A stretch of DNA of 64,000 bases, taken from the IMG/VR virus record IMGVR_UViG_3300042199_000463, positions 11,218 to 75,217 of that record, one strand, 5' to 3'. The stretch is from a virus (taxonomy: Duplodnaviria; Caudoviricetes). The first letter of the stretch is position 1; each line of letters opens with the position of its first letter. Position numbers and translations under genes: made by a program. Under the pieces are notes generated by a model. It searched no databases. It was not told the DNA's origin and saw only the letters and a list, made by a program, of their open reading frames with translations. Positions 1 to 64,000 of this stretch are shown in pieces.

Positions 1-1064
1 TAGGAGTCGTCCACTACACCACCGCCTGAAACAGTTTTGTACTGTGATTTGTATTCATCAAGTATCGGCGTAACTACTTTGGACGGATGACTTGTGCGCA
101 GATTTTTTAACTGCCGGTCAAAGTCTTTGTCTGTTGCATCCTCAAGTTGTTTTAGTGCTCTAGCTGCCCCTGCGCTAGATCCGCGCAAAAGTTTTGATGC
201 CAGTACTTTTGTCCAGCCGCCTTCCGAACCCAAAAGCCCGCCGATAAGTTTTGCATCTGAGTCAGTGATAGCTCCCAGTGCGAACTTGTCTTTTGCGGAA
301 AGCTTTGCTTGCGACATTAGGTTATTGAATAAATCCAAGTCCACGCCACTTGTTGGCAGACCCTTCTGCTCTACGAATTCACGCATAGTTTTTAGGGCAG
401 ATTTGAAATTTATGAATCCCGGTATGGTTTTACCGATGTCTGATTTCGATAAAGAGTCTCTAAGTTTTTGCTGATCGATTTCAAGTTTTGCGTCGTCGCG
501 CTCTTTCTTTTGCTCTTTATTGGCTTGCGCTAAAGTTTTAGCGCTCAACGCCTTAAGCGCTGCCTGCTCTTTCATAGCCGACGCATTGAGTCTCGTTCGC
601 AAAAGATTCATCTCAGATTCGCTTAGAGCGCCGCGTGCTTTGTTAAGACCAGCTTGCAGTTGGCGGATCATCTCCATTCTGGACTGCGGAGTTTCCGAAG
701 GCTGATAGTTTTTAGCCTGATTTGTTCCGTACCAAGCATCAAGCATCGAGGCGATAGGGGATAGATCAGTTTGAATAGGGAGTTGTTTGTAGCCTTCCAA
801 AGCTTTTTGCTGCTGCGTGATGTCCTGCTGAGCAAGACCCATGTTATTTTGCTGCTGCGCCGTTAGTTGGCGGTTGAGCTCCGCTTCCTCGGCTTGTTGT
901 CTGCGGAGTTGCGCAAGGTATTCTTGTGTGGCTTGATCGTTTGGGTCAACAGGCGCAGGAGGAAATCCGCCGCCCGCAGGAGTTGATGCGTTAACGTCCT
1001 CTTGCGTAGGTACTCCCGCAATTGGTGAAAACTGTGGCATGTTATACCAAACTGTCCGAGCCAT
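1..1064 (-). CDS. Internal virion/ejection protein (module A), 3' end outside window
   Basis: Hand-translated open frame from ATG 1064 (MARTVWYNMPQFSP..., GCGGAG RBS) to the window edge; Q/A/K-rich helical; lies after two ejection-like genes. Confidence 0.7.
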   Translation of the reverse strand, partial: MARTVWYNMPQFSPIAGVPTQEDVNASTPAGGGFPPAPVDPNDQATQEYLAQLRRQQAEEAELNRQLTAQQQNNMGLAQQDITQQQKALEGYKQLPIQTDLSPIASMLDAWYGTNQAKNYQPSETPQSRMEMIRQLQAGLNKARGALSESEMNLLRTRLNASAMKEQAALKALSAKTLAQANKEQKKERDDAKLEIDQQKLRDSLSKSDIGKTIPGFINFKSALKTMREFVEQKGLPTSGVDLDLFNNLMSQAKLSAKDKFALGAITDSDAKLIGGLLGSEGGWTKVLASKLLRGSSAGAARALKQLEDATDKDFDRQLKNLRTSHPSKVVTPILDEYKSQYKTVSGGGVVDDS

Positions 1065-1076
1065 GTTCTACTCCGC

Positions 1077-1418
1077 TTAGAATTGTCCGCTAGATTGTGG
1101 AGGCCCTTGTTGCACGTAGGGGTTGCCCATGCTGCTCCAAACAGTCCGCCCACCGTCAGCTCCTCCTTGTGCAAGGAGCTGTTGCATGTAGTTGTTGTAC
1201 GCTTGGCGCTGTTGCTCATCTTGGTACATCTTCGCAGCGGCTAGGCCACCACTTGCTACCGTAGCACCAGTATCAGCCGTCAAAGTATTTGCTGGCTGCA
1301 TGCCTGTCCAAGGAGAGTACTTAGCTTTAGCTACCTCAATGGGAAGCTGCTTTTTTTCTTTCTGCTTTTGCGCTACGGCCTGCACAGCCGCCATCGCAAG
1401 TGGAATCCACGCTGCCAT
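1077..1418 (-). CDS. Small ejection/pilot protein (A)
   Basis: 113 aa, hydrophobic N-terminus MAAWIPLAMAAVQAV, G/Q-rich; AGGAG RBS. Confidence 0.6.
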   Translation of the reverse strand: MAAWIPLAMAAVQAVAQKQKEKKQLPIEVAKAKYSPWTGMQPANTLTADTGATVASGGLAAAKMYQDEQQRQAYNNYMQQLLAQGGADGGRTVWSSMGNPYVQQGPPQSSGQF

Positions 1419-1429
1419 ATTTTTCTCCT

Positions 1430-2353
1430 TTATCCTATGATGCCTGCTGGATCTGCTAGTTTAGACCAAGCTGAACGAGCTCCTGCGTTTTGTAAAGCGT
1501 CAGCAAGTTCTGCCCCTGCTTTTCTCTTCATTCCTTCGCCGTAAATGAACTGCTCGTTGGCGAGTCGCTGCTGCTCTCCGGTAAGTCTATTTCCGATGTT
1601 GAACATCTGACCTTGATTTTGTTGTCCGATGTTGAACTGCTCTAGGCCAGCCTTGTACTGTGCCGCACCGAGCTGCGCTCCGGGAAGTTGAGACAAGAAT
1701 TGATTTTTCTGTTGTTGATCTTGCAGACCGATATCCGCACGAGACAGAGCACCTTGTTGCAGCACACCTTGGCGCGCCAAAGCTTGATTTTGCATGGCCT
1801 GATTTCCAAGACGCATAGCTGCACCGCCGCGTAGACCGCCGCGTGCTGCCATGCTCGCCCTTGCTTGAGCGGCTTGATTTGCGGATAGTTGAGCTGCCGC
1901 ACCTGTGAGTGCGGACTGCTCTAGTCCTTGCTTCTGCAAAGCCATACGAGCCCAAGGACTGTCGCCTTGTTCAAGTGCGCGCGCTTTAATGGCCTCGATG
2001 CCAGACATATCTAAAGCATTTTTTCCGAGGTCAAGCTGACCTGCCGAGTAGATGTTTTGCGCATCTTGGAATGGGTCTTTGTATACTGGAGCTGTAGGCA
2101 TGGGGATGCCGCTTGCTGTATCTACTCTTGGGTCATCTTTTAGTGGCGAAGACGCTCCCGCTCTTTCACCGCCTCCTTGGATATCTCGTGCTGTCTGGCG
2201 GCCCATGTACGTCCCGCCACCTGTGACAACGTCTTCAGCACGGACTTTGTCGCCCGAACCTACTGCGCGGTTTATTCCACCACTTAAAACTGTAGAGGTA
2301 TTTTTACCGAGTGTTTTGTCCGCTTTTTTTGCAAACTTCTGAAGATAGCCCAT
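1430..2353 (-). CDS. Ejection/internal virion protein (A)
   Basis: 307 aa, A/Q/G-rich helical, downstream of the adaptor. Confidence 0.65.
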   Translation of the reverse strand: MGYLQKFAKKADKTLGKNTSTVLSGGINRAVGSGDKVRAEDVVTGGGTYMGRQTARDIQGGGERAGASSPLKDDPRVDTASGIPMPTAPVYKDPFQDAQNIYSAGQLDLGKNALDMSGIEAIKARALEQGDSPWARMALQKQGLEQSALTGAAAQLSANQAAQARASMAARGGLRGGAAMRLGNQAMQNQALARQGVLQQGALSRADIGLQDQQQKNQFLSQLPGAQLGAAQYKAGLEQFNIGQQNQGQMFNIGNRLTGEQQRLANEQFIYGEGMKRKAGAELADALQNAGARSAWSKLADPAGIIG

Positions 2354-2361
2354 GTTTTACC

Positions 2362-3054
2362 TCAGCTCATTTCGTTATAAAGGCGCATATCGGCCTCTAG
2401 TTCATTTTGGGTATCTGGGAATATGTTCGACAGTGTAGCAATCGTGTCCGCTTTTTCCATCTCCAAATCAGCGATAGCTTTTTGAAGGTTCGGATGCCCT
2501 TCCTTTTCGTAGCACCTAACCTTGGCATACTGGATCACGTAGTTCACGGCCTCAGGTATATCCATGACATCAGTTTCAGCAGAAAGGCGGTTTGCATTCC
2601 TGAGATACCAAACCTTGAGATATGCGCCGTTTTCCAAAGGAGTAGGAGCTAAAAGAATTTTTGGCGAGCCTGCCGTAGAGTTTACGAGCATGTATCCGTA
2701 CAAAGCGTTGTAGGATGTGCCAGCTTTTAGGAGCTCGTACTCTTCAAATTTTCTCCAATCCTTGACACGCTGAAGCTGATAAACCGTGGTCCCATTTCTG
2801 TATATGATGCCGCGAATTTTCATGGCATACACATCAGTCGGGAAAGAATACTCCTCTTGTCCGCTCACTAGGCTGATCGTTGTGCGAGTGATAAAGTAGT
2901 CTTCGTTCAGAGTGTGAATTTGGCGCTCTACTTCGTCGATAGCTTCGTTGATGTAGGAGTCAAGTTCGGCTTGATTAATGAACGTCTCGCCTTCAAGATC
3001 CAAATCTCTTTGAATCTTGTCTCTAATTTCTAGGAGCGTCCAGTAAGTGCTCAT
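2362..3054 (-). CDS. Head-tail adaptor (P22 gp4/T7 gp11-like), copy A
   Basis: 230 aa; N-terminal helical pattern LLEIRDKIQRDLD...ELDSYINEAIDE...NEDYF; YLRNANRL motif; next to the nozzle. Confidence 0.7.
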   Translation of the reverse strand: MSTYWTLLEIRDKIQRDLDLEGETFINQAELDSYINEAIDEVERQIHTLNEDYFITRTTISLVSGQEEYSFPTDVYAMKIRGIIYRNGTTVYQLQRVKDWRKFEEYELLKAGTSYNALYGYMLVNSTAGSPKILLAPTPLENGAYLKVWYLRNANRLSAETDVMDIPEAVNYVIQYAKVRCYEKEGHPNLQKAIADLEMEKADTIATLSNIFPDTQNELEADMRLYNEMS

Positions 3055-3371
3055 TAGTTTTCCTCGTATCTTCCTACGAATGCACGAATTGTCGTCGCAC
3101 CCGAAGTTGTAAAATCTAGGTTTGTTCTATCAAAATTAGCATAATTCCATGTCAAAGTAACGGCTGGGCTTACGTGCAAAGTGATGATGTCTTTTGGTAC
3201 AAACGAAAGATTGTGTTTGTGTTTGTAGTTTGTAACCGCCCCGTTGACGGAGATCTCAAAAAACTTAAACTGCCCCTTCTCAAAAGGACTCGCGTTGATG
3301 TTATCTTGCAGGCGCTTAAAATTCTCCTGCTCAAACTCCCCTTCAATCTCTTTTCTGAAAAGAGAAATCAT
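3054..3371 (-). CDS. Small tail-associated protein
   Basis: 105 aa, translationally coupled between nozzle and adaptor. Confidence 0.5.
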   Translation of the reverse strand: MISLFRKEIEGEFEQENFKRLQDNINASPFEKGQFKFFEISVNGAVTNYKHKHNLSFVPKDIITLHVSPAVTLTWNYANFDRTNLDFTTSGATTIRAFVGRYEEN

Positions 3372-5650
3372 CCGGCACCTACTTCACCGGTACCGGCGGT
3401 CTTAAACACGTTTTGAGTCTGTCCGTATATTTCATAATCAATCGCGTATGCGATGAGATTCAAGACTTCGTTCTTTGGTATGCCGCGCACTACCCACTTT
3501 TGATCAAGCGCGGATGCGGATGCTCCGGACGGATCATCGTATGTTAGGACATCATTTGTGCGGGCTGTAATCAAGTACTCACGCACGTAGTTGTCGGCCT
3601 CAAATGAGATGTAGTAGTCGACAGCATTGCTTGGCCAATCCTTGGTTGCAGCTTCGTCCAATGTCGCAGTCTTTGCTACGGCGTCGATGTCCACTGTGCC
3701 GAGTAGATCGGAGCTCACTATAGCAACCATCGCATTTGTTAGCCGCACCTGCTTATAATTACACCGCAGGTTTTCAGCAGGGAATCTGCGAAGCTCATCG
3801 ATGAGCCCCTGCTTATTCCACTCAAACGAGATGTCGCCCCAGTAAATGTCGGGGTCTCCCCACGTTAAGTTACCTCTGTAACGAATGGGCAAGAGGTTAG
3901 CTTCTTTTCTGCCGTCGTCGTTGATGGACACGATTTGAAGTGACAGATTTGTACTGTCCTCGGCCACCACTGTTACACGTGGAACAAATTTCCGTACATT
4001 AGTTGTGCCGAAATTATACGCCACCGATTCAATCGTGTAGATGATTGACGTGCGTATCCAGTTTGCCACGGCGGTGCCTGTGTCAATCTTTGGGTCTGAC
4101 TTAGTCAAGGAGTTGTGCTTGAGTACATATCCTCTTCGATCACACCGAATCAAATCGCCATTTGAGTCAAACTCAATAGCAGTAGGGCTGAAAGAATCGC
4201 CGCCAGTAATAGTCGTAAAGGTAGCGTTTTCTTTGACACCATAGTTGAGATCAAGGACGTAGGCTTTGTCCGTATCCGTGATGGACTCGTGCTGCACAAC
4301 CCACCACACACGGCGTTTTCTTCTGTCGTATTTTCCTTGTACACGTCTGCGCTTGGCGGCCTGCAATGCTGCATCGGACGAAGCTGTGACAAAAGCTGCG
4401 TAAGTTTGGTCATAGTCCTCGTTCAGCTTTACGACTTGAAAACCGTTTGTAAAATATGTGCCGTCAACACCCGCCCAAAAAACGCCGTCAAATGTCTGTA
4501 CTTGCGCCTGAGCATTTAAGGCTGTGGACGTGTCCGAGATAGACTCTGCGGTGAAGTCCCCTCGTCCGAGCTCGTCAATTTCTCCGTCTAGCCTAAAACA
4601 CGAGTTTGTGTTCACAAGCACGGGATTACTTTTCGTTGACGACACACCAACGATTGTGTCGTTGATGTCGGTGTAAAAATCAGGCGGCACAGCAAAGAAA
4701 GCACCGGGTACGGATTGAAGGACACGGTTTTTTAAATTCTCCGTTCCATCCAAAATACCTGCGTAGTACGCCTTCTCGTTTGAGATGTGCACAATCGAGC
4801 ACTTTGGCGGCTGTACGAATTCTACAACGTCGCCCGTGGTGTAGAGAGTCTCGTTATTTTGAATTGAGGCGTCGGCGAAGTTGTCGTTATATGATGTGGT
4901 AGCGTTAGAGATTTCGGCGACTTTGAAAAACACTGTGCCATTACTAAGTGTGCGGTACAGAACTTTTTTGATGTTGGTCGTGTCAAAGTTTCTTGTGCCG
5001 CCGTTTGCGAGCACAGGAATAGTTGTGAAGTTAACCGATGTTGCGTTCGTGATTTCATATATGTCCGAAGTCTCGGAGTACTCTTTAAACTCAACTCCAT
5101 CCACATCCACGTAAGTGTGCTCGTGTACCCATTTATAAAGCCAATTATTGCCGCCGCCTAAGACAGGAGTCTTGGTGATCGCCGCCATCGAGATCTGCGG
5201 AAGACCTACTTCCAATATTTGCCAACTTCCACCCGTGAGCTGCACGAGCTTTTGCGGATACCATTGCCCTGAGTGTGCGAAGTAGGCTTGGTTATTCCAA
5301 ATAGAATAACTGAACACAGAGTTCGTATCTGCGGCATTGAATGCAGGATTTCCAGTAGGTCCTGTAACTTCCGGCCAGTTGGATACAGTGCTGTAGCGGT
5401 AAAGCTTGGAGCTCGACTGCACAAAAAGCTGCGTGCCCACGTAAAACGATGTGCTGATACGCTGCGCACCCGGAGGAATCTGTGGATAAGTTGTGTCTAA
5501 GATGTCAGAACCGGGGCGCGTAAACGGCTTAGCCTGACCTTGGTATTGGATGAGCAATACGTTATCAGCCACCTTCATTTTGTTTGGCGGCGCGTTAAGG
5601 TGGTAGTCTGTTACCCCACCAGAGAAATCTGTTACTTCTAAGACTTGCAC
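3368..5650 (-). CDS. Tail nozzle/tail tubular protein B (P22 gp10/T7 gp12-like), copy A
   Basis: 760 aa, beta-rich; starts with the typical DFSGG motif; beta-propeller-like; structural operon. Confidence 0.75.
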   Translation of the reverse strand: MQVLEVTDFSGGVTDYHLNAPPNKMKVADNVLLIQYQGQAKPFTRPGSDILDTTYPQIPPGAQRISTSFYVGTQLFVQSSSKLYRYSTVSNWPEVTGPTGNPAFNAADTNSVFSYSIWNNQAYFAHSGQWYPQKLVQLTGGSWQILEVGLPQISMAAITKTPVLGGGNNWLYKWVHEHTYVDVDGVEFKEYSETSDIYEITNATSVNFTTIPVLANGGTRNFDTTNIKKVLYRTLSNGTVFFKVAEISNATTSYNDNFADASIQNNETLYTTGDVVEFVQPPKCSIVHISNEKAYYAGILDGTENLKNRVLQSVPGAFFAVPPDFYTDINDTIVGVSSTKSNPVLVNTNSCFRLDGEIDELGRGDFTAESISDTSTALNAQAQVQTFDGVFWAGVDGTYFTNGFQVVKLNEDYDQTYAAFVTASSDAALQAAKRRRVQGKYDRRKRRVWWVVQHESITDTDKAYVLDLNYGVKENATFTTITGGDSFSPTAIEFDSNGDLIRCDRRGYVLKHNSLTKSDPKIDTGTAVANWIRTSIIYTIESVAYNFGTTNVRKFVPRVTVVAEDSTNLSLQIVSINDDGRKEANLLPIRYRGNLTWGDPDIYWGDISFEWNKQGLIDELRRFPAENLRCNYKQVRLTNAMVAIVSSDLLGTVDIDAVAKTATLDEAATKDWPSNAVDYYISFEADNYVREYLITARTNDVLTYDDPSGASASALDQKWVVRGIPKNEVLNLIAYAIDYEIYGQTQNVFKTAGTGEVGAG

Positions 5651-5651
5651 G

Positions 5652-6032
5652 TTAGCTCGTATAGTAAAGAGTCAAGTTCAAGGTATTGTCGTTTACATAC
5701 ACGTAAAAAGTCGTTGCTGTGACTTTCTCGATTGTCGGAAAATACTGATGCCCTGTCGTCGTATTTTTCACCTGCACAAAGTAGTCGTTGTACTGCAAAG
5801 ATCCGGGCATAGTTACCGTCTGACGGTATGTGCCGTTTCCTTGGTGTACCCATCCTGCGGCCACAATCGTTGAGGTCGTAGCCGTGACGGATGATGAAGT
5901 GATCTTCGCAGAATTCACTCCGTTGTGCGTGTGGTCGTTAAGCTGCTGGATGTCGTCTTCAAGTGCGACAAAAAATACGTCGCCCTTGTCACCAGTCTGC
6001 GGCTTTTTGAAACCGTATGTTAGTGTCTGCAT
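5652..6032 (-). CDS. Putative tail/fibre attachment protein
   Basis: 126 aa; T-rich, HTHNG motif; structural context. Confidence 0.45.
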   Translation of the reverse strand: MQTLTYGFKKPQTGDKGDVFFVALEDDIQQLNDHTHNGVNSAKITSSSVTATTSTIVAAGWVHQGNGTYRQTVTMPGSLQYNDYFVQVKNTTTGHQYFPTIEKVTATTFYVYVNDNTLNLTLYYTS

Positions 6033-6212
6033 TTACTTCTCCAAAGATACATCCCAAGCTTCCGCAACAGTGGCCACGAGTTTGTCATCAACGTTATTGT
6101 CAGTTTTCTTCGCTGCGGCTTGGCAAATGTAAACTATCATTTTTCCAACAGCCGCTTGTGTCATCAGTTTCCACAAAAGACCTGCAAGCAATTTAAGTAG
6201 AGCATTTGTCAT
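6033..6212 (-). CDS. Holin-like small membrane protein
   Basis: Likely ATG 6212 overlapping the endolysin stop; amphipathic N-terminus plus TDNNVDDKLV motif; directly after the peptidase. Confidence 0.5.
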   Translation of the reverse strand: MTNALLKLLAGLLWKLMTQAAVGKMIVYICQAAAKKTDNNVDDKLVATVAEAWDVSLEK

Positions 6213-6643
6213 TGAAAAACTCCCCATGGATAGTTTGGAAGGATGATTGAGTTTACATCTTTTCGTGAACTAATAGGACGTACTCGGACAAAAGCGTTTT
6301 GCGCTTTAGCTGCGTCTAAGGAGGTGGTTTTGGAATCTCCGCCACCGGCCTCAACCATAAACGTATCATTTAAAGCGATTCCGACATGACTTATGGGACT
6401 CCCAAAAAACACGAGCGCGCCAAACGAGGCTTTGGTTTGAATGACACCCTTCGCTTTGAAGTACTCTTTTAGTCCCGAAGCAGTCGCGTCTTGACCCTTT
6501 GACCACTGTCCGGAAGCCATCAAAAACTCGATAGCTAGTCCTGAACAATCAAAACCATCCATCGCATCATCTCCGCCCCACCTGTAAGGTGTGCCGATAA
6601 GGCGCATGAGGTAATCGTACATAATGCTTTGTGAGCCAAACAT
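6209..6643 (-). CDS. NlpC/P60 cell-wall peptidase (endolysin A)
   Basis: GTPYRWGG, GFDCSGL (catalytic Cys), SHVGI (His). Confidence 0.9.
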   Translation of the reverse strand: MFGSQSIMYDYLMRLIGTPYRWGGDDAMDGFDCSGLAIEFLMASGQWSKGQDATASGLKEYFKAKGVIQTKASFGALVFFGSPISHVGIALNDTFMVEAGGGDSKTTSLDAAKAQNAFVRVRPISSRKDVNSIILPNYPWGVFQ

Positions 6644-7575
6644 TAAAGCTCCATAATCTTAGTTACGAACATCAGGTCAACACCTGAATGAGTTTTATTC
6701 TGCGGGCAAGGTCGCCACTCAAAAAATTCTTTTAAGTGATCCGTGTATTCTAGCTCACCTTCTTGCCAAAGATACGATGCGCAATGGTTTTCTGAAGTCG
6801 GGAGCGCATCATTTGGAAAATGCGACTCATCCATTAGTAGCTTGATCGCTTTTGATTGATCGCCCGTGAACTTTCCTAGCATCGCGTGAAATAGAGCATT
6901 ATTCGGCTCTAGTTCTGTGTACGCTTTTAGTACCGCAAGTTCGTTGTCAGTGATGGCTTTGTTGACAAGGTAGTTTTGCAGGATTGTGATGACGTGAAGG
7001 TGCGCTTCAAAGTTCTGCCTAAGAATCACTAGCCCTTCGTCTGTTGCATCAATCAAAACGCCTGTGAGTTTTGGGTTTAGTGCGTCTATCATAATCTTTA
7101 GGCGGTAAATCATTGTTGGCGCGAATGCTACTCGTGACATAAGTGTCGCAAAATCTATTGCCTCGCCCATGATCCAATCATTAGCGTCACCGTAGTCGTA
7201 AATAGACTGAAGAACGTCTTGCCGCCCGTTTGAAAAAGCCCAGAGCATAAGGCCATTGAACATGTCTTTTGAAATGCTCGACTTTGAGCCATTCGGATAG
7301 CAGGATTTTGTTGGATGACGCAGCCACTTTCCGTCAGATTGTCTTGCAAGAGTTGGGTCAACAGGAAATCCGCTGAATGCTGCAATGCTGTTGAACAAGA
7401 GCGCGTCACATTCAAAATCAAGCCATCCCGATTCATCAGTATGAGATTTTGCTAACTCAACGTAGAGGTCGCGCTTTTTAATCACATCCTCAATTGAATG
7501 AGTTGTGGCTACCGCGACATGCTTAGGCTTCATGTCGCAGGAGGTGATTAGAAATGCGAGAAGAAGGAGGCGCAT
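6643..7575 (-). CDS. Lipoprotein of unknown function, copy A
   Basis: Signal peptide with lipobox LITSC; paralogue at 63162-64000. Confidence 0.7.
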   Translation of the reverse strand: MRLLLLAFLITSCDMKPKHVAVATTHSIEDVIKKRDLYVELAKSHTDESGWLDFECDALLFNSIAAFSGFPVDPTLARQSDGKWLRHPTKSCYPNGSKSSISKDMFNGLMLWAFSNGRQDVLQSIYDYGDANDWIMGEAIDFATLMSRVAFAPTMIYRLKIMIDALNPKLTGVLIDATDEGLVILRQNFEAHLHVITILQNYLVNKAITDNELAVLKAYTELEPNNALFHAMLGKFTGDQSKAIKLLMDESHFPNDALPTSENHCASYLWQEGELEYTDHLKEFFEWRPCPQNKTHSGVDLMFVTKIMEL

Positions 7576-9290
7576 TAGCTATTATTCTCTATATTTGAAA
7601 TCTTGTTTTCGAGGATTTCGACTTTAGTCAGCAGTTCTTTTATTGCTGCGGCGAGTAACGGGGTTAATTTCCCGTAATCAACAGCTAACATTGCATCAGT
7701 ATCTTCGAATTTAGAAACTGCTGACGGCCAAACCTTCAATAGTTCCTGAGCAACAAAGCCAACACCGTTTGACTGGTCTTTCTTCCAAGTCCACGTTCTC
7801 GGCTGTAAACATTTTACTAACTCTGACGCATTGTCTAGGTTATTAATGTTTTCTTTCAATCGTTCATCAGACGATGTTGCGTAATTTACCGCGCTGGTAC
7901 CGTTTCCGTGAATAGCCCCTGTCCGAGTGTTGATTCCATCGCCATCATAAAATCTGATGTATTCCGCCGCAGTAAATGTTCCCGATCCCACTAAGCCAAC
8001 ACTCAGCGCTGTCGTGGAAGTATTATCCGTTGAGTTGGAATTTCTAACATCTAGGATAGCTGTTCCATTTGTATTACTGCTTGCGGAGAATTGATTCCCT
8101 ACAACGGATGACACTAGTGCCGATCCGCTATTAGATAGTCCCGACGTTGAAATTGATGAAGAGAATGTTGCTGCGGAAGAAAATGTTTTTGCTCCAGCGA
8201 AGGTTTGCGTAGTCGTACTAACCAACCCACTCTGCGTACTAGTAGCCATCCCGAACCCGACGGCCTGGCCGCCTAAAGCTGTCTCCGTAGGTACGGCTGC
8301 CCATGTGCCTGCTGTTGTTTGTGTGCTAATCAATTTTCCGAGCAAGCGCATCGGGACGTTGCTTCGCGCTGTCGTTGAGTAAAGAGTTGTCGCACTATCC
8401 GCTGCGCCCGATCCGCCTTCGGCTGTAGTTGTTTTTAATCCAAAAGTTTCGAACAAAGTCGAAGAAACAGCTAGTTCTACAGTTCCGGAGTTATCTATAG
8501 CGTAAACAAAAATGTCAGAGGCGATTCCGCTTGCGTGCCCGAGCGTTGATCCAGACGAAACCACTACAGAGAGAGAACCGGTTACGCTTCTGGTGTTATA
8601 AGTTCCGTTTGTAGCCGTGGCGTTTCTAAATCCAATTTTTACCGGCGATCCTGCGGAAGGATCGCTTCCCGCTTTGTCTTTCAATGCAATAGTAAGCGCA
8701 CTTGATCCGACTGAGCAAGATATCGCTAAGTTCAATTGATCGGCTGACGAATCAAGCGTTGGAGTAACCGCTGCCCACGCAGGCAATCCGCCAGACACCG
8801 ACAACGCTTGCCCGTCTGTACCAATAGGCAAACGAACGTTGTCAGTGCCGTTATGGTAGCTAATGTCGCCTGTTGTCGTAGTTGGCGCAAGCGCATCAAA
8901 CGCTGCGGTTTGTGAAGTATTCCCAGTACCGCCGCGAGAAATTGGAAGCGTTCCAGTTGTGCCGCCATCAATCGGTAAACCAGTAGCGTTCGTCAGTGTT
9001 GCGCTCGAAGGTGTACCAAGCGCCGGAGTAACAAGTGTTGGCGAGGTACTAAGCACCACGTTTCCTGAACCTGTCGATGTTGTTACGCCTGTGCCGCCGT
9101 TTGCGACTGCTAAAGTTCCTGTTACGTTACTGAAATCGGCTGCTAGAAAAGTTTTCCACGCAGATCCGTTGTAGTATTTGGAAATGTTGGATGTGGTGTT
9201 GAAGTACACAAGACCTGATGCAGTGCTAGCTGGGTCAGAAGCTAAGTTTTCAAACTGTGCGGCGATTAGTTGACTGTAGATGTAGGCCAT
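7575..9290 (-). CDS. Tail fibre with C-terminal intramolecular chaperone (peptidase S74)
   Basis: T/S/G-rich repeats; C-terminal SDERLKENI...GFVAQEL...VDYGKL..LLAAAIKEL. Confidence 0.85.
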   Translation of the reverse strand: MAYIYSQLIAAQFENLASDPASTASGLVYFNTTSNISKYYNGSAWKTFLAADFSNVTGTLAVANGGTGVTTSTGSGNVVLSTSPTLVTPALGTPSSATLTNATGLPIDGGTTGTLPISRGGTGNTSQTAAFDALAPTTTTGDISYHNGTDNVRLPIGTDGQALSVSGGLPAWAAVTPTLDSSADQLNLAISCSVGSSALTIALKDKAGSDPSAGSPVKIGFRNATATNGTYNTRSVTGSLSVVVSSGSTLGHASGIASDIFVYAIDNSGTVELAVSSTLFETFGLKTTTAEGGSGAADSATTLYSTTARSNVPMRLLGKLISTQTTAGTWAAVPTETALGGQAVGFGMATSTQSGLVSTTTQTFAGAKTFSSAATFSSSISTSGLSNSGSALVSSVVGNQFSASSNTNGTAILDVRNSNSTDNTSTTALSVGLVGSGTFTAAEYIRFYDGDGINTRTGAIHGNGTSAVNYATSSDERLKENINNLDNASELVKCLQPRTWTWKKDQSNGVGFVAQELLKVWPSAVSKFEDTDAMLAVDYGKLTPLLAAAIKELLTKVEILENKISNIENNS

Positions 9291-11440: not shown

Positions 11441-11452
11441 CGTTTAGTATCC

Positions 11453-11689
11453 TTAGAAGAGATCCCAAGCACTATTCCAAGTACCAGTATACTCTTTCAT
11501 GAATACAATTCGCGATGTCACGCCGGAAAAAGAGTACCTCACCACTGAGCAAGGAGTGCCGTTTTGAGCGTTGGCAGGAGCCGTGTACACATACTCGGAA
11601 CGATTGTTCACATCGTACTCAATGTGCTGCTTTACGAGCTCGTTAACTTGTGTCTTTAAATGCCCCGTGTCATTAGGTGCTACGGCCAT
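11453..11689 (-). CDS. Small virion protein
   Basis: 78 aa, AGGAG RBS, between the capsid and fibre genes. Confidence 0.5.
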   Translation of the reverse strand: MAVAPNDTGHLKTQVNELVKQHIEYDVNNRSEYVYTAPANAQNGTPCSVVRYSFSGVTSRIVFMKEYTGTWNSAWDLF

Positions 11690-11702
11690 GAAATGCTCCT
11701 AA

Positions 11703-11720
11703 ATGGGGCCGAGGCCCCAT
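11703..11720 (-). terminator. GC-rich hairpin after the capsid-decoration gene
   Basis: Perfect stem ATGGGGC/GCCCCAT with 4-nt loop; only a short T run follows. Confidence 0.45.
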
Positions 11721-11723
11721 CCA

Positions 11724-12194: not shown

Positions 12195-12216
12195 TTAAGT
12201 CTCCTAAAAGATGTGA

Positions 12217-12252
12217 GGGGACTGACTTGTCATGGACAGAGGTCTAGTCCCC
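12217..12252 (-). promoter_or_regulatory. Long intergenic stem-loop after the MCP gene
   Basis: GGGGACT(12217-23)/AGTCCCC(12246-52) extended by GAC/GTC and TGTC/GACA. Confidence 0.45.
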
Positions 12253-12265
12253 GTTGGGTCAACTA

Positions 12266-55580: not shown

Positions 55581-56966
55581 CTATCTCCTTTTAAGTACGT
55601 TCTTAACGACGGTTTTCGCGCTCTTTTTCGTGGGCTTTACAGCAAGTTCCTCAGCCAATTTCGAGTATGGAACTTTCACCGGCTCACCGCGACTGCGCGT
55701 TGCTTTTTCAGTTTCTTTTGTGGGCTTTTCGACAAGATTTTTTTCAATTTGCCTTGGCAAACTTTCTTGATTTGATTTTGTTACGTTCGGTTCAATTTGA
55801 CCGAATTCGCCAACGGGCTGTACAGGCCCTTTCGCCGCTAACGCATCGGCCATGCCTTGCTTAATGCGAGCAAGATCGTATCCACCGCCGACCGTAGGCT
55901 GACGTCCTGCAACCGCCGTGTCGGTCAATCCCAAAAGTCCCGCCAAGTTATTGTAATACGATGCCTCGCCCTCATCCATGAAGGCCATGGGATCGTCCAT
56001 TGATCCAGAGACAGTCGGAGTGTAATACTGATTAACGTCGAAACGACTACGAAGCGCGTTTCTATCAAACATCTTTCCTTCTGCAGCAAGTTCATTCGCG
56101 GCCATTTCGTAAGCTTGCGCTGCTTCTTCTTCTGTTCCGCGATGTTTTGGATAGCTTTCTTTGAATGCCGCCATTTCAGGATTTTGTGCTGCTATCAAGT
56201 TTTCGCGCATTTTGGTTAGTGCGTCGCGAACTTGTTTTTGTTTTGTCTCGTAAGCAGTTTTAGCTTCGCCGCGCTCTTGTCCGGTCAAAGACGCTTCCTG
56301 TTGTGCGCGCTGCGCTTCTACCGCACCTTTTTGAGCTTGCAAACTTTCTTGCTGCTGCTTAAACGCGCCGCTTTTGCCGAGTAACGCCGCGTCAAGTCGG
56401 CTCATGCCCTTGGAATACTCAGGGCCACGACGCTCTTGCAAATACGATGCAAGTTGCTCTTGAGATTTTGGAATCGCAATATCAGACGTCGAAACGCCCG
56501 ATTGATATTCTTCGATGTCCGACAAATACGGCGTTTGCAAAAGCTTTTGAATGTCGCCTGTTTTTCCAGCTCTGACGTTCGACTCCAAATCTTTCAAATA
56601 GTCAGGCGTTTTAGCTGCAGCTTGCGCGCCTTTTTGACCGTAGCTTTCCGCTTCTTTTTGGAGCGCGTCTTGCTTTTGACTAATCGCCGATCCAATGTCA
56701 GAGAATACATTTGCAGCTCCTGCTGTCGGCTGATTCATCGCAGCTTGTGACTGCCCTGCTGCAGCTTGCGTCAATCCAAGACTTTTCTGACTGCCAGTAT
56801 CCGATACAGGAGGCGCACCCACGGAACCACCGTCACCTGTAAGTTTTAATCCAGCGGATTTTTGTGCCCCACCGCCTTGCTCTTGCGGTTGCCCGCCGCC
56901 GAAGATGTTTTGCTTGTCATCTTGTTGGCCCATTTGTGATGCGAGCTTAGAAAAAACATAAGGCAT
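55581..56966 (-). CDS. Internal virion protein (B)
   Basis: 461 aa, Q/G/A-rich, directly after portal B. Confidence 0.6.
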   Translation of the reverse strand: MPYVFSKLASQMGQQDDKQNIFGGGQPQEQGGGAQKSAGLKLTGDGGSVGAPPVSDTGSQKSLGLTQAAAGQSQAAMNQPTAGAANVFSDIGSAISQKQDALQKEAESYGQKGAQAAAKTPDYLKDLESNVRAGKTGDIQKLLQTPYLSDIEEYQSGVSTSDIAIPKSQEQLASYLQERRGPEYSKGMSRLDAALLGKSGAFKQQQESLQAQKGAVEAQRAQQEASLTGQERGEAKTAYETKQKQVRDALTKMRENLIAAQNPEMAAFKESYPKHRGTEEEAAQAYEMAANELAAEGKMFDRNALRSRFDVNQYYTPTVSGSMDDPMAFMDEGEASYYNNLAGLLGLTDTAVAGRQPTVGGGYDLARIKQGMADALAAKGPVQPVGEFGQIEPNVTKSNQESLPRQIEKNLVEKPTKETEKATRSRGEPVKVPYSKLAEELAVKPTKKSAKTVVKNVLKRR

Positions 56967-58927
56967 TATAGTTGTCTCCCTAAATTGTCTTCAGCAGTCG
57001 GAGCTGGCTCGGCTGGCTGTTCGGCTGGCCCTTGTTCCGGCATGACTGGCCCCGTAGGTAAAGATTGCTGCGGAGCCATTTGCGGAAGTTTGCCTGTACG
57101 AACCATCGCCATAAGATTTGGGTCTGTAGTTTGTGCGAGGTTGTTGTGTTCCTCGATATGCTGCAAAATTGCTCCCACCATTTGACCATTTTTTCTAATC
57201 TCAGGATTGTTCAAAAGCATATTGTGGTATTGGATATGAGAAGGATGATCATCTGTAGCAAGTACCAGAACATCCTCACCACGCATAAGAGCTTCGTTCT
57301 CAGAAACTTGCAAATCCGTTTCGGAAAGCTCTTGTCTGTAAAGTTCTTCAGTTGGTGCGCCCTCAATGATTCTGAAATACTGTTGAGGTGATTTGATCAA
57401 CCCTGTTTGCAAAAGTTTTTCTGCAATATCCGAACGTCCTGCGATTGTTCCCATGAGTGGATTTGAGCGGTTGATCTTAACTTTTTTAATTGCCTTTAAA
57501 TCTTTGCCGGTAAACTCGTAACCGTAAGCCATGTTGTTTTTGCCAGTTACAAGAATCGAGCGCGGAACGTCTGCAAATTCCATGTATGTCTTTAGAGCAA
57601 GCGTGATCGCTCCTTCTAGTGCCATGTCCACGGATTTTTGCAGCGATGACATAAACTCAAGTGAGTTTGCCGTGAGTGTCGCGATCGCTGTTCCTGATGT
57701 GACCCCAGGAGGTGGGGCACCGCGTACCGCTGAGTTGATGCCGGAAATCTCTAGCATGTAGCCCTTAAGAACTTCGGCGAACTTAAACGTCTCAGGAGCC
57801 GACTGCGTAAGCTGCATTGGTTCAGGCTTTCCGCCGCCATCGACGTTTTGCGGCGTAAAAAATACGAAGTTCAATCCGCCCACGTCTTGCGAGCTAATAT
57901 CTGCCCCACGTGGGCACAAAATCTGCTGTACTGCAGTCGCCGATTGATTCGTCGCAATTGCCGACAAGCTGTGATCGTACATTTCTTGGCAAGGCAAAAG
58001 ATTCGACAAGATCGGATAGCCGTAACCAGACTTGTGAATCGGCTCAGGACGTATCGGAATGAGTGGAATGCACCCGTAACGGTTTTGTCCGTCGAAATAA
58101 ATTGTGCGGTCATCCGAGTACATGATCATGCGTCCTGCAGGTAACGCAGGGCATGGCTTATGATACGCTTCATAAACGTAAATCATGTCGTCAGATTCAA
58201 GGTCTGTGCTGTGATCTCTCACACCGGACTCACGCACAATAATGCGTGGAATCGCCATGATTTCGTCTTCTAGTTCAGGAAACTGCGCGATCATGTCCCA
58301 TCGGTTTTTGATCGTGCGCACAACGGCCCATGGCACGTTGTCAAAATCGTCGATACGCGAATCAAAATATACATCAAAAACAGTAGGCACAGAAATTTCA
58401 ACGTCGCCGTCATAAACGGCTTGCGGCATCGCCATGTCTTCGACAACTTGCTCACTTGCAGCATACGGCGTGCCCTTGTCTGTTCGCCATCCCACTTTTA
58501 AAAATGAAAGTCCCCAGATGCAAGCTTGCTCTGTAATCAACTCCGACTTTTTATCAAGCTTCTGTTCTTGAATTAGTTCTTCTGTGAGAGCTGACGCAAT
58601 TTTTACGGCTTGCATCACGTCCGAGCCAGATGCTTCGGCGATTGACGTAAAAGCAAGACGCTGCTTTGTTACGAGTGTAACAATCTGACGAATAAGTGAG
58701 CGCGCCTGTGGCACCGCCATCTTAACTAGCTCGCCCTGCTCTCCAACGTAACCTAGCGCGCTTTGCCAGTCGTTTGCTTCCAAGATTGCCGAGTAATACG
58801 CGATTGAATTCCTGATCCAAGACTCTGCAATCGGATTAGACGAATACGTGAGCCATGTTTCTTGCTTTCCACATAGCTTTTTCGCGATTTTGTCAGCTTC
58901 TTCAGAAAACCAATAAGCTCTTTTCAT
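56966..58927 (-). CDS. Portal protein (P22-like), copy B
   Basis: 653 aa; GLSFLKVGW, IPLIPIRP, GVTSGTAIATL, ENEALMRGE...DDHPSHIQYH motifs; Pro/Gln tail. Confidence 0.8.
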   Translation of the reverse strand: MKRAYWFSEEADKIAKKLCGKQETWLTYSSNPIAESWIRNSIAYYSAILEANDWQSALGYVGEQGELVKMAVPQARSLIRQIVTLVTKQRLAFTSIAEASGSDVMQAVKIASALTEELIQEQKLDKKSELITEQACIWGLSFLKVGWRTDKGTPYAASEQVVEDMAMPQAVYDGDVEISVPTVFDVYFDSRIDDFDNVPWAVVRTIKNRWDMIAQFPELEDEIMAIPRIIVRESGVRDHSTDLESDDMIYVYEAYHKPCPALPAGRMIMYSDDRTIYFDGQNRYGCIPLIPIRPEPIHKSGYGYPILSNLLPCQEMYDHSLSAIATNQSATAVQQILCPRGADISSQDVGGLNFVFFTPQNVDGGGKPEPMQLTQSAPETFKFAEVLKGYMLEISGINSAVRGAPPPGVTSGTAIATLTANSLEFMSSLQKSVDMALEGAITLALKTYMEFADVPRSILVTGKNNMAYGYEFTGKDLKAIKKVKINRSNPLMGTIAGRSDIAEKLLQTGLIKSPQQYFRIIEGAPTEELYRQELSETDLQVSENEALMRGEDVLVLATDDHPSHIQYHNMLLNNPEIRKNGQMVGAILQHIEEHNNLAQTTDPNLMAMVRTGKLPQMAPQQSLPTGPVMPEQGPAEQPAEPAPTAEDNLGRQL

Positions 58928-61900: not shown

Positions 61901-61962
61901 AAAGTGTTCGGCTGTAGGTGAAGTCCTACAAATTTTTTGATTTCAAGATGCGTGTAAGCCAT
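58924..61962 (-). CDS. Tail nozzle/tail tubular protein B, copy B
   Basis: 1012 aa; KFVGL...DGALEVANNIVI....IRKRPGF N-terminus; GWGNEPWG near the C-terminus. Confidence 0.75.
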   Translation of the reverse strand: MAYTHLEIKKFVGLHLQPNTLTVPDGALEVANNIVISEDFIIRKRPGFPTFHTPSSGTLKNLHNFESEIIASYGTKLQHIDSGGTGTDLSGETFSVTGNRVPRSELAKDNFYVTSDNGVMKITSTSSQVTKVGIPPALDLRARFIEQANVAAASMGPIEGDVQVAYRILFGKKDANKNLLLGAPSDIAILANTKVAADYVHSGGGSPYTITVTEAGHGLITGNTITVTDATSSQINGTYTITFISSSQFSFIFTGTAPTNGTLSYEYNRKPRLEFTIPTEIKDATDSTDFFYQIYRTTQSAAATAVPDTNFALLKEAKPTASELANRIVVFDDDIDDIFLLGATPLYTNENSGEGELQENSRPPLCEDIALFKDMMFYLNCTERHLINMQLVSSDVTNSVIGNADYVEVKQDATTRRYVARTGVGNATVTSESASFVSTTITVNYTAHGLVTGDTIFVHSAIGTGTLPAGSYTLASHAANSFTFVAASAPTTLTDLDFEGVTNGTYPIFQLSDSATNLSIGIRDTAIGLVKAINRDTTSPVYARYVSGVDDLPGKFFLESKTFNTNPIQLRAVTAAATTPGSAFSPVLTTSFSDTESDQSVDPNTAAVAKVGEPEAVPRTSRIVIGARNKHGQRIFALRDSVLVLKDDGVFRVDGDRPSNLVATILDNTVVPIAPSTAVLSNNTVVFLADQGVSTATATSVEVISRMGIELPLQAVIGNSNIATASSAVAYESQRLYLLTTIAPQETTATRVYCYNFLTQAWTTWDTLFKQAIVGPNDKLFYISMSNTVKKERKNQNKLDYTDESFAITVNSVTNSGATANITSSLSIPASGDVIVQSNVISRIKLVTSLGAGAYSIQFEQAGNLQTGANTIYKGYTAEIKTAPFHGGLTNREKHFAQFQVHTKDRSISVIEMTFANESFGSSEATTWRLSEVASSSGWGNEPWGFFPWGLEDGINLSYGTQPAPAIRIYVPRFAARGTYIQAILSHTMGAEPMNIQAIGYQLRAYQERVSR

Positions 61963-62873
61963 TAAAAGAATCCACGTGTTCGCCTTGAGCGGTTGCCTCT
62001 TAACAAGCCAAAACGCTGCAAAATCTTCGTGGATTCGCCCTCGATACGAGGAGCGAGAAGGTATTCACAGTTTTTCTTTCTGATCTGTATCTCTTTTTCC
62101 AGTGCGTTCGATCCCTCGTAATCACCTAACGCTTCCAAGCATCTTTTCGATGTTAAAAACGTCAGATACGGAAAGATTTCGTCAGGAAGTTGAATCACAG
62201 GCGATTCACAAGAAATCCCCACGTAATCCCCAATGACCGTACCAGTTGGAACCGTTGCAACAGTAATTTGAGAGCCTGATACGTTTGTAATCGTCTGATC
62301 CATGGCTCGCAAGCGGTTGCCTTGTTTGCCTTGTATAATATCGACTGTCGCCGACGCCACAAACGCCGACGGCACGTTATCAAGCGTGAGCGTGTTGCCA
62401 GATACTGCAGTAACTTTTCCTGCTTTGTTAAGCTGCACGACTGCGTTTGGCTTAAGAAGATAAAATTTCTGCAGTGTCCATTGCGTGTCGATCGGAGTCG
62501 GCACCATTACGATTTGATCGCCCTTGAAATAGAAGCTCAAAGGCAAAGACTGATGTGACGAAAGGTGAGCGTCTTCTAACGCTACTTTTGCGACGTCGCG
62601 AACAGAGTTTGCCGAGTCACGTACTTTCAAATCGCGTAGCGTCCTGCCCACGGCGCGGTAAGGAATGTCGTATTCAGCAGTATTTGCGACCATGGCTTCT
62701 TCTTCCATGGTTACAAAGTAATCCTGATTCAGAGCGCACATCATGGGCACGACTTTTGAGTCAATTTCCTCATTAGCCAAAGCTAATAGGCGATCTTCGG
62801 TCAGCAGCGTCTGATTATTCGGAGCTGTGATCGTAGTTCTAACTGACTCAATTAAGTCTGCAGATGTTTTCAT
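61962..62873 (-). CDS. Head-tail adaptor, copy B
   Basis: 303 aa; LLALANEEI...LNQDYF parallels NEDYF of adaptor A. Confidence 0.7.
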   Translation of the reverse strand: MKTSADLIESVRTTITAPNNQTLLTEDRLLALANEEIDSKVVPMMCALNQDYFVTMEEEAMVANTAEYDIPYRAVGRTLRDLKVRDSANSVRDVAKVALEDAHLSSHQSLPLSFYFKGDQIVMVPTPIDTQWTLQKFYLLKPNAVVQLNKAGKVTAVSGNTLTLDNVPSAFVASATVDIIQGKQGNRLRAMDQTITNVSGSQITVATVPTGTVIGDYVGISCESPVIQLPDEIFPYLTFLTSKRCLEALGDYEGSNALEKEIQIRKKNCEYLLAPRIEGESTKILQRFGLLRGNRSRRTRGFF

Positions 62874-63160
62874 CGCTTACCAAACTTTCCCATTTTAGGA
62901 GCTGCTGCTTTTATGGAAACGGCGAGCATTGAGCTTTTCGGTGCTTTGATCTTTCCGCCTTTTTTCATCTCTGATTTTACCATTTCCGATAGGTCGGAAT
63001 CCATTTCTGGTTCTTTTTCTTCAAGCATTTCTTGCTCAGGCGATTCTTCTTCCTTTTCCTCGCCCATGTCCATGCCGACCATCATGTCTTGCATCATTTT
63101 GATAAGCTCTTGTAAGGCTTCTTTTTTCGCGGCTAGTTTTGAATCTTCCATTTCCATCAT
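62870..63160 (-). CDS. Low-complexity acidic/basic small protein
   Basis: M/E/K-rich, 96 aa. Confidence 0.55.
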   Translation of the reverse strand: MMEMEDSKLAAKKEALQELIKMMQDMMVGMDMGEEKEEESPEQEMLEEKEPEMDSDLSEMVKSEMKKGGKIKAPKSSMLAVSIKAAAPKMGKFGKR

Positions 63161-63161
63161 G

Positions 63162-64000
63162 TTAAAGCTCCATAATTTTAGTTACGAACATGAGATCAAC
63201 ACCTGAATGAGTTTTATTTTGTGGGCAAGGTCGCCACTCGAAAAATTCTTTGAAGTGGTCTGTGTATTCTAACTCGCCTTCTTGCCATAGGTAGCTCGCA
63301 CAGTGATTTGCTGAAGTTGGAAGCGCGTCATTTGGAAAATGGCTTTCATCCATGAGTAGCTTAATCGCTTTGGATTGGTCGCCTGTGAACTTTCCGTACA
63401 TTGCGTGAAACAGTGCGTTGTTTGGTTCTAGTTCTGTGTACGCTTTTAGTACCGCTAGCTCGCCGTCAGTGATGGCTTTGTTGATAAGGTAGTTTTGCAA
63501 GATTGTGACGATATGCAGATGAGCTTCAAAGTTTTGTCTGAGGATGATTAATCCTTCATCTGTAGAGTCAATTACAACACCCATTAGGCTTGGATTCAAA
63601 GCATCAATCATGACTTTGAGTCTGTAAACCATCGTTGGCGCAAACGCTACTCGTGACATAAGTGTGGCAAAATCTACTGCCTCGCCCATGATCCAATCAT
63701 TTGCGTCACCGTAATCATATACTTGCTGAAGAACGTCAGCGCGTCCGTTTGCAAATGCCCAGAGCATGAGTCCGTTGAACATATCTTTTGAGATGCTAGA
63801 TTTTGAACCTTCTGGGTAGCACGAGCGTTTTGGATGCCTGAGCCATTTTCCATCAGCTTGACGTGCAAGTGTTGGGTCAACGGGAAATCCACTGAATGCT
63901 GCAATCGAGTTGAATAGAAGTGCATCACATTCGAAATCAAGCCAGCCAGATTCATCTGTGTGCTGTTTTGCAAGTTCAATGTAGAGGTCGCGCTTTTTTT
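63162..64000 (-). CDS. Lipoprotein paralogue, copy B (5' end outside window)
   Basis: Frame open to the window edge (KKRDLYIELAKQHTDESGW...); 19 differences in the C-terminal 206 aa versus copy A. Confidence 0.85.
   Translation of the reverse strand, partial: KKRDLYIELAKQHTDESGWLDFECDALLFNSIAAFSGFPVDPTLARQADGKWLRHPKRSCYPEGSKSSISKDMFNGLMLWAFANGRADVLQQVYDYGDANDWIMGEAVDFATLMSRVAFAPTMVYRLKVMIDALNPSLMGVVIDSTDEGLIILRQNFEAHLHIVTILQNYLINKAITDGELAVLKAYTELEPNNALFHAMYGKFTGDQSKAIKLLMDESHFPNDALPTSANHCASYLWQEGELEYTDHFKEFFEWRPCPQNKTHSGVDLMFVTKIMEL

Follow-up and report, generated by a model that had tools for sequence, protein, structure and literature searches.

In a case of 2017 (PMC5610896), distinct viral genomes were joined at an identical stretch longer than reads or inserts, the components were recovered separately elsewhere, and the breaks lay at graph edges with k-mer-sized overlaps; the virus record analyzed here resembles that case in these respects. 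It also recalls the mosaic exchange of modules among unrelated tailed phages of one host, since the two otherwise dissimilar phages described below have in common a cassette, a section of a fibre with the 310-aa gene downstream of it, and a handful of small early genes. Record IMGVR_UViG_3300042199_000463 comprises 75,217 bp, and the window, the whole stretch of 64,000 nucleotides that was analyzed, corresponds to record bases 11218–75217. We consider it highly probable that the record is a chimeric contig of two independent, complete podovirus-like phage genomes, A (40,719 bp) and B (about 37,113 bp), which co-occur in the same freshwater samples. Positions below are those of the window unless given as record positions.

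Layout of the record and its repeat

The order of parts along the record is X–R–Y–R–Z, in which R includes an exact direct repeat of 1,900 bp. Self-BLAST and a 100-nt identity profile revealed that the direct repeat pairs record 4999–8506 with window 34501–38008, and that the two copies agree at 100% over the left 1.9 kb and at 77–99% over the right 1.6 kb. The second copy of the 1,900-bp repeat (R-left; 34504–36403) is identical to record 5002–6901 and contains minus-strand ORFs of 53, 168, 164, 109 and 107 aa; the repeat spacing within the record is 40,719. The sequence-only reading had correctly pointed to 34.2–34.7 kb as a junction region. The right part of the cassette occurs as an A-type version, R1-right (record 6902–8506), and as a B-type version, R2-right (36404–38008; 77–99% identical to the former), which holds the gene of a 338-aa protein resembling a fibre or spike, as well as ORFs of 104 and 115 aa. 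Both A/B switches of the record fall inside the 1,900-bp stretch at 100% identity, and this stretch was also recovered as a contig by itself in 8 + 3 samples (L049 and L050). CheckV labels the 75-kb record as 100% complete.

Gene sets and maps of the two genomes

The unique part of phage A covers 1–34503 and reaches upstream to record base 6902, R1-right included. Encoded here are TerS, TerL, portal, scaffold, major capsid protein (MCP), fibre, an SU10-type adaptor and ejection-type proteins, accompanied by an NlpC/P60 protein, an AEP primase and helicase, an SF2 helicase, DNA polymerase A and VRR-NUC. TerL (530 aa; 16919–18511, minus strand) matched Terminase_6N at 6e-5, over the cut-off, and the position of the TerS candidate (18474–19217) upstream of TerL is kept in every A relative. 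The portal (14508–16598) is kept as portal in A-type relatives and is followed by a scaffold candidate (13519–14496) and the MCP (412 aa; 12266–13504, minus strand), which matched the phrog_14242 major head protein at 5.8e-5 and shows 51–59% identity in five full A-type genomes, with values reaching 67% at other A-type loci. The adaptor (230 aa; 2362–3054) matched SU10_adaptor (PF24175) at 2e-19. The AEP-type primase and helicase occupy 22153–24603, the SF2 helicase is at 28666 and the NlpC/P60 endolysin at 6209. A host-range module (6643–9290, minus strand) consists of the A copy of the 310-aa gene (6643–7575, minus strand) and a 571-aa fibre with a Peptidase_S74 chaperone end; such a module of 310-aa gene and fibre is common to A and B-type phages.

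The order TerS–TerL–portal–scaffold–MCP was conserved in 25/25 IMG/VR relatives, whose TerL is 37–47% identical to that of A. In five IMG/VR relatives of 39–45 kb, the structural and replication genes are those of A, and B genes are absent (0/5); CheckV estimates them to be 90–100% complete, and one of them has terminal repeats. In relative G004, the late operon abuts VRR-NUC. The sibling JGI contig Ga0485323_000169 (39,073 bp) corresponds to record 6775–45847, with 100% identity over the 21.9 kb compared (two ends), and shares exactly 127 nt with the 1,900-bp repeat at both ends. Since 39,073 + 1,900 − 254 = 40,719, which equals the spacing of the repeat copies, phage A would be a circle of 40,719 bp; graph topology and synteny in relatives suggest that it closes on itself through the repeat. 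A contig with the A-closing pairing, joining VRR-NUC, R-left and R1-right, was not seen among the contigs compared. In the GenBank phage collection, neither A TerL nor A MCP found any match by tblastn, and megablast of window 1–25000 and 39001–64000 against GenBank phages likewise gave none.

Part Z of phage B (38009–64000) is collinear in gene order with B relatives L056 (89–94% nucleotide identity) and L057. Encoded in it are a DUF5681 TerS candidate, a ParB-methyltransferase, a Toprim primase-helicase, an SF2 helicase, an M15 endolysin, a Gam-like protein and early genes, together with ejection-type proteins, a P22-like portal, proteins of 1012 aa and 303 aa (the latter adaptor-like) and a 310-aa gene in truncated form. 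The sequence-only reading had counted only one TerL, scaffold and capsid gene, which proved to be an effect of the window edge, as the 11.2 kb upstream contain a TerL, a scaffold candidate and an MCP. It had held that a second TerL and MCP outside the window would speak against a single composite virion; both are present, but upstream (record 1–11217) and not beyond 64 kb.

B TerL (482 aa; record 3491–4939, minus strand) matched phrog_2 at 1.9e-25 and Terminase_6N (PF03237) at 1.6e-8, with 34.9–37.1 bits against a cut-off of 22; in total, the record has two Terminase_6N matches over the cut-off. The 440-aa protein at record 299–1621 (minus strand) is an HK97-fold major capsid protein, on the combined basis of a family match of its homologues, a fold match and its conserved position. 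The protein itself matched no family, and PF17236 (SU10_MCP) was found via its homologues, 9/26 of which match it (best E 5.6e-7). About 600 homologues are conserved over the full length, and many of them sit on 34–39-kb contigs. Foldseek with the capsid model (pLDDT 69, pTM 0.72) yielded phage capsid entries for 10/10 matches at E ≤ 1e-3, with SU10 at the top (E 4.9e-5, prob 0.99, TM 0.28–0.37); phage HK97-fold capsids make up almost the whole set of fold matches. The only relative among GenBank phages is MWH-Nonnen-W8red 1 (CP017838.1), with 45% identity over the full length. A 307-aa scaffold candidate (record 2165–3088, minus strand) was named from its position and a weak Atlas lead, a score of 0.88 to P22-type scaffold clusters that lies under the trust level.

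Within the window, the B portal (653 aa; 56966–58927, minus strand) matched PF16510 P22_portal at 1.2e-8 and phrog_156 at 1.8e-20, and it weakly matches the orthologous portal gene of relative G001. The adaptor-like protein (303 aa; 61962–62873) is 25% identical to the A adaptor (E 9e-5). The DUF5681 TerS candidate (123 aa; 38400–38771, minus strand) matched PF18932 at 3e-9, and the R cassette stands between it and B TerL. In relative L057, with the order TerS–TerL–127–scaffold–166–MCP–fibre, the DUF5681 gene immediately precedes TerL; one small opposite-strand ORF separates the two, and the cassette is absent there. The Toprim fusion primase occupies 40725–43226, and the SF2 helicase and the Peptidase_M15 endolysin are at 43352 and 45389, respectively. 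The B copy of the 310-aa gene (63162–64000, minus strand), which is cut at the record end, is 81% identical in nucleotides and 91% in amino acids to the A copy.

Contig L058 follows the record from 6307 down to 1 at 100% identity, continues through 2,615 new bases, and then enters the last 127 record bases at 100% identity; the same B-closing order was found in relatives L056 and L002. This implies that phage B is a circle of about 37,113 bp, closed across the record ends. Closure of the record itself as a circle was rejected, as its end-to-start join gives no continuous frame for the 310-aa gene and 2,615 bases are missing.

The window contains two non-orthologous sets of phage genes, and the duplication of nearly every module claimed from the letters alone is mostly real: it holds for portals, adaptors, TerS candidates, primases, SF2 helicases and endolysins and was not confirmed for VRR-NUC, whose supposed second copy at 43233 is only a 31-aa ORF in a 125-nt gap. 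The labels SSB/SSAP, nozzle, ejection protein and origin found no family match in their support.

Cassette contexts and origin of the join

In independent data, the flanks were also found paired in another way, which concerns the B side: Z-start continues through R2-right and R-left into X. This order is present in L043 (6.7 kb, 99.98% identity), which contains ParB-MTase, DUF5681, R2-right, R-left and TerL2 (the TerL of B), with phage A absent, and partly in L044, L046 and L047, which link R2-right, R-left and TerL2; these four contigs were from two JGI and two Logan assemblies. Of the ten contexts listed, eight have TerL2 and none has VRR-NUC after the last gene of R-left (53 aa), and the remaining two (L045 and L047) stop at or just beyond the repeat edge; L045 runs through R2-right and R-left and then 9 nt into the VRR-NUC side. 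L042, the only contig found in a single metagenome scan with a repeat-internal 24-mer, connects TerL2 with a right part that is R1-like at 13/17 diagnostic sites; right-part variants are therefore not strictly lineage-bound. Contigs of runs X15/X16 exit at window 34504 into sequence identical to record 4972–5001. Word depth in the Logan contigs of these runs, which are not the source and whose depths cannot rank the parts, was ~4 for the A part and ~5–19 for the B part. For runs X18/X19, window 24001–34005 was nearly without contig cover and 34504–44000 was covered, where missing cover counts as no evidence. No match was obtained in IMG/VR for the B portal, the 338-aa protein of the cassette or the 25/26-mers of either junction. 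A 50–200-kb contig with these genes was present in three index blocks, which suggests that the same join was made in several sibling assemblies; these probably hold the same chimera. Such a repeated join is expected from a deterministic assembler and equally from a real molecule.

The join can be explained by the accessory cassette R of about 3.5 kb, which is present in both phages with an identical left part of 1,900 bp. In a de Bruijn graph of k=127, of which exact 127-nt overlaps at contig ends are a signature, the identical 1,900 bp would collapse into one edge. The A genome would be attached to this edge as a loop, giving a figure-8 graph, and B would pass through it as a line because it is broken in its variable fibre gene. 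A path entering from B (X) and taking the repeat, the A loop once, the repeat again and the exit into B (Z) would produce the order X–R–Y–R–Z. We infer that the join was made by this loop traversal in the assembler. The components were found separately: the A edge with 127-nt overlaps at both ends, the 1,900-bp repeat as a contig by itself, and L058 with a 127-nt overlap at the record end. Misassembly, one of the options listed in the sequence-only reading, is favoured by the repeat, the separate A edge, the B contigs in which the repeat is traversed with no A sequence, the closure of B and the second TerL and capsid gene.

A real molecule could share this layout, since one crossover between A and B in the 1.9-kb identical stretch, an ample substrate for recombination by its perfect homology, would yield the order X–R–Y–R–Z as a circle of ~77.8 kb or a concatemer in a co-infected cell, and the long contig type seems present in about three sibling assemblies. 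Nevertheless, both parents were recovered as separate closed maps at 99.98–100% identity, and the record breaks and 127-nt overlaps coincide with de Bruijn graph edges. In addition, A-type genomes measure 39–45 kb and B-type contigs 34–39 kb, so that a 77.8-kb molecule could presumably not be packaged whole by a capsid of either type. We regard a real cointegrate as unlikely. That A::B cointegrates of this size arise by recombination across the 1.9-kb cassette often enough to be assembled repeatedly also seems improbable to us; if this were true, the cassette would be a portable recombination hotspot, at which unrelated phages fuse, resolve and swap fibre and early modules.

Two further readings were weighed. 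One composite phage of about 75–78 kb, whose virion, packaging and replication genes would really come in two sets, has the contig itself and the CheckV "100% complete" label in its favour and nothing else. Each module set is complete alone and is found separately in other assemblies and relatives; TerL, capsid gene and portal each occur twice, so that only the accessory cassette is shared. Perfect direct repeats of 1.9 kb placed 40.7 kb apart would, moreover, be expected to recombine away soon. This reading, which the sequence-only reading had offered as an option, is very improbable, as each half stands alone on other contigs. A helper–satellite pair, in which B (or A) relies on the packaging or capsid genes of its partner, was suggested by the window, inside which B seemed to lack a TerL and a capsid gene and to possess only a TerS candidate (DUF5681). 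However, the TerL, capsid gene and scaffold candidate of B lie together at record 299–4939, and B has its own TerS candidate, portal, adaptor-like, fibre and endolysin genes. The about 600 homologues of its capsid protein, many of them on 34–39-kb contigs, and the full head-gene order in L057 also speak against dependence. The satellite reading is refuted if the first 11 kb of the record belong to B, as L043, L044, L058 and L056 show. We give it almost no credence; the idea does not hold for a phage encoding TerL, capsid, portal, adaptor and fibre of its own.

The chimeric contig thus stands as the preferred reading, and the 75-kb record called "100% complete" should become two genomes of 40.7 kb and 37.1 kb. 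Left unsplit, it would bias genome-size statistics upwards, mislead clustering as well as host prediction, and encourage mistaken notions of a two-vertex or helper–satellite phage. Most likely, the apparent double phage is an artefact of assembly, and the sharing of the cassette is the more modest, sound biology.

Cassette exchange and comparison with known systems

The data argue that two unrelated freshwater podophages recently exchanged the cassette of about 3.5 kb. The letter-perfect 1.9 kb, together with the shared fibre and early genes, argues for a common host and a very recent event. The donor was probably the B lineage, in which the cassette is widespread, and the recipient A, from whose relatives it is absent. 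The middle part of the A fibre is 82% identical in amino acids to the fibre of B relative L056. The model of the 338-aa cassette protein is poor (pLDDT 60.5) and confident only in a C-terminal jelly-roll (residues 248–338), whose best match, among many cupins, was the receptor-binding domain of the phage PM2 spike P1 (Z 9.6, rmsd 2.2, 85 aligned); this predicted likeness is a lead and not an assignment.

Comparison with mosaic exchange among phages of one host showed a difference in the sites of the cassette, which stands between TerS and TerL in B, whereas in A it closes the late operon, ahead of VRR-NUC. With regard to SU10/Kuravirus-type podophages, the 230-aa protein of A resembles SU10_adaptor and the B capsid model is closest to the SU10 capsid; however, about 10% of residues are identical to those of the solved SU10 proteins, the genomes (37–41 kb) differ in size and gene order, and membership in the genus is not claimed. 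The SU10 genome is much larger than 37–41 kb. The Proteobacteria phage MWH-Nonnen-W8red 1 (host Silvanigrella aquatica; 43.3 kb), whose record is without annotation, is a distant capsid relative of B. In contrast to the case in PMC5610896, A and B are not strain variants and represent unrelated phage types that share an accessory cassette, and the product is a nested genome (B–A–B) rather than a simple end-to-end join.

Layout of the record and its two gene sets

The 75,217-bp record, which IMG/VR classes as linear and CheckV rates as 100% complete, extends a further 11.2 kb upstream of the window, which spans its bases 11218–75217. Self-comparison of the record revealed a direct repeat, R (record 4999–8506 and window 34501–38008), and the record therefore reads as X (1–5001), R1, Y (8507–45717), R2 and Z (49226–75217). 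The left portion of R, 1,900 bp, is 100% identical between the copies (record 5002–6901 and window 34504–36403), and the right portion, 1.6 kb, is just 77–99% identical. A second similarity (81% nt, 91% aa) connects window 6643–7479 with window 63162–63998 and reaches the record end. The genes of one phage, A, lie on Y, and those of another, B, on X and Z.

Gene set A, in window 1–34.5 kb, comprises a TerS candidate (247 aa), TerL (530 aa, with a Terminase_6N match over the cut-off), portal (696 aa), a scaffold candidate and the capsid protein (412 aa), and this order recurs in 25 IMG/VR relatives. The set also includes an SU10-type adaptor (2e-19), an NlpC/P60 endolysin and a 571-aa fibre (window 7575–9290) with a C-terminal Peptidase_S74 intramolecular-chaperone domain (8e-13); its replication genes encode an AEP-type primase and separate helicase, an SF2 helicase, DNA polymerase A and a VRR-NUC-type nuclease. 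A 78-aa ORF (window 34249–34485) is sited between the R cassette and VRR-NUC; its homologue, 48% identical, is found directly upstream of TerL in the B relative L002.

Gene set B, in window 38–64 kb, contains a TerS candidate (DUF5681), a P22-like portal (1.2e-8), a 303-aa protein weakly resembling the A adaptor, a ParB-methyltransferase, a Toprim primase-helicase, an SF2 helicase, an M15 endolysin and a Gam-like protein. Upstream of the window, on the minus strand, are its large terminase TerL2 (482 aa, record 3491–4939; phrog_2, 1.9e-25; Terminase_6N, 1.6e-8), which provides one of the two Terminase_6N matches over the cut-off in the whole record, a 440-aa capsid protein (record 299–1621) and a 307-aa scaffold candidate (record 2165–3088), proposed from position and a weak Atlas lead. 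The capsid protein has about 600 full-length homologues (62–97% identity), PF17236 SU10_MCP was matched by 9 of 26 of these, and phage capsid entries, with SU10 first, account for every one of its 10 fold matches at E ≤ 1e-3.

The sequence-only reading had described nearly every module as duplicated, with a sole TerL, scaffold and capsid gene. Most of the duplications are real and reflect two gene sets in the window, but several labels lacked support: the VRR-NUC placed at 43233 is a 31-aa ORF within a 125-nt gap, and the SSB/SSAP, nozzle, ejection and origin labels had no family match. The single copies turned out to be a window-edge effect, as record 1–11217 holds a second TerL, capsid gene and scaffold candidate.

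Several variants were seen among B-type sequences. TerL2 alleles in other samples (L061:1278–3242 and L042/L060) are interrupted after about residue 54 (record 4776/4777, upstream of the window) by an in-frame insertion of roughly 1,048 bp, whose Hint_2 and LAGLIDADG_3 matches identify it as an intein carrying a homing endonuclease; this record has an allele free of the intein. Between its capsid and fibre genes, the close B relative L056, with an MCP 97% identical, has an inserted 234-aa gene for a GIY-YIG homing endonuclease (L056:3658–4362), which this record lacks. A B-type contig of run X19 omits 1,587 bases within window 38400–39988, including the ParB-methyltransferase gene, and has 450 other letters there; thus the methyltransferase is a replaceable island among B strains.

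Phages A and B on separate contigs

A JGI contig from a sibling sample, Ga0485323_000169, is 39,073 bp long, and its two ends, the parts compared, equal record 6775–17828 and 35020–45847 at 100% identity. Since the span from 6775 to 45847 is likewise 39,073 (45847 − 6775 + 1), the contig covers the A-specific stretch and, at either end, exactly 127 nt of the repeat; overlaps of just this length arise when an assembler uses a k=127 de Bruijn graph. The sum 39,073 + 1,900 − 254 gives 40,719 bp, the exact spacing of the two repeat copies. The A structural and replication genes occur in five IMG/VR relatives of 39–45 kb (CheckV 90–100% complete; terminal repeats in one), and B genes in none of the five. 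In one of these, G004, the late operon continues into VRR-NUC, so that the two ends of Y adjoin there. We infer that the A circle closes through the repeat, a closure that no single contig displays.

For B, a 6.7-kb JGI contig, L043, is 99.98% identical to window 39838 down to 34501 before it continues into record 4998–3626, giving the order ParB-methyltransferase, DUF5681, B-type right part, repeat and TerL2, with the A loop absent. The B-type right part is also joined via the repeat to TerL2 in L044 (JGI) and in L046 and L047 (Logan). Another JGI contig, L058 (9,049 bp), reproduces the record from base 6307 back to base 1 with 100% identity; beyond base 1 it contains 2,615 bases missing from the record, which complete a 905-aa fibre gene and supply the 310-aa gene with its 5' end, and then the final 127 bases of the record at 100%. 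The crossing in L043 and the bridging of the record ends by L058 thus make B a closed map of 5,001 + 1,900 + 27,597 + 2,615 = 37,113 bp. B-type capsid homologues were found on 34–39-kb contigs, and the gene order TerL, 127, 307, 166, MCP, fibre, 303, 1012, portal is also present in the relatives L056, L002 and L057; L056 is 89–94% identical to B in nucleotides and is the only one of the three with the 310-aa gene after the fibre. The last gene of the cassette was followed by TerL2 in 8 of 10 listed contexts, the other two contigs stopping at or just beyond the repeat edge, and VRR-NUC was present in none of the 10. One of the contigs with this last gene, L061, is identical in length to the X19 contig crossing 34504, and contigs of runs X15 and X16 diverge from the window at 34504 into sequence equal to record 4972–5001.

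Origin of the joined record

Among the four readings offered from sequence, misassembly was the one supported, borne out by the separate finding of A and B and by their common 1,900-bp repeat, which is a contig of its own in 8 + 3 samples. In a figure-8 assembly graph this repeat would be one 1,900-bp edge, entered from X or from the end of Y and left through either the A-type or the B-type right part. Because B is broken in the fibre gene, it would form a line through this edge, with A as a loop on it, and a path entering from X, passing once round the A loop and leaving to Z would reproduce the record exactly, including its ends in the fibre/310-aa region. Short-read assemblers traverse loops in such graphs. 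A physical cointegrate, arising from a single crossover within the 1.9-kb homology, is unlikely: it would measure about 77.8 kb, larger than the genome of either phage type, and both of its supposed parents exist at 99.98–100% identity. The composite A and B molecule is most probably not a real feature.

The contig L045 contains the B-type right part, the repeat and then 9 nt into the VRR-NUC side. In L042, the right part coupled to TerL2 is A-like, with 13 of 17 diagnostic sites agreeing; recombination between the two cassette variants does take place in nature.

Cassette and modules common to A and B

The R cassette is absent from all five A-type relatives fetched in full (G001–G005) and from the B relative L057 (35.9 kb), in which the DUF5681 TerS is directly upstream of TerL. 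The cassette (window 34504–38008) is thus an accessory insertion, placed at different sites in A and B. Its position beside TerL2 is widespread across many samples, whereas that beside VRR-NUC is confined to the sibling sample series, which suggests that A acquired the cassette from B recently.

Besides the cassette, A and B have the 310-aa gene in common, along with a portion of the fibre and a few small early genes, which fits a common host. The middle of the 571-aa A fibre is 82% aa identical to the L056 fibre and the N-termini are unrelated, which looks like a swapped receptor-binding part. The small plus-strand early ORFs (window 26198–26443 and 48457–48804, 27438–27632 and 49020–49235, 25759–25992 and 48268–48456; 43–84% aa identity) are a further exchanged set.

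The cassette encodes a 338-aa protein (window 36314–37330; other copy, record 6812–7828) with internal repeats of the type DGDY..VD..G.L.V. Its homologues, more than 750 and many on 35–63-kb phage contigs, have no Pfam family. The model of this protein has a confident C-terminal jelly-roll whose nearest match is the receptor-binding domain of the phage PM2 spike P1 (Z 9.6), a weak lead towards a role in adsorption, possibly as a fibre- or spike-like protein.
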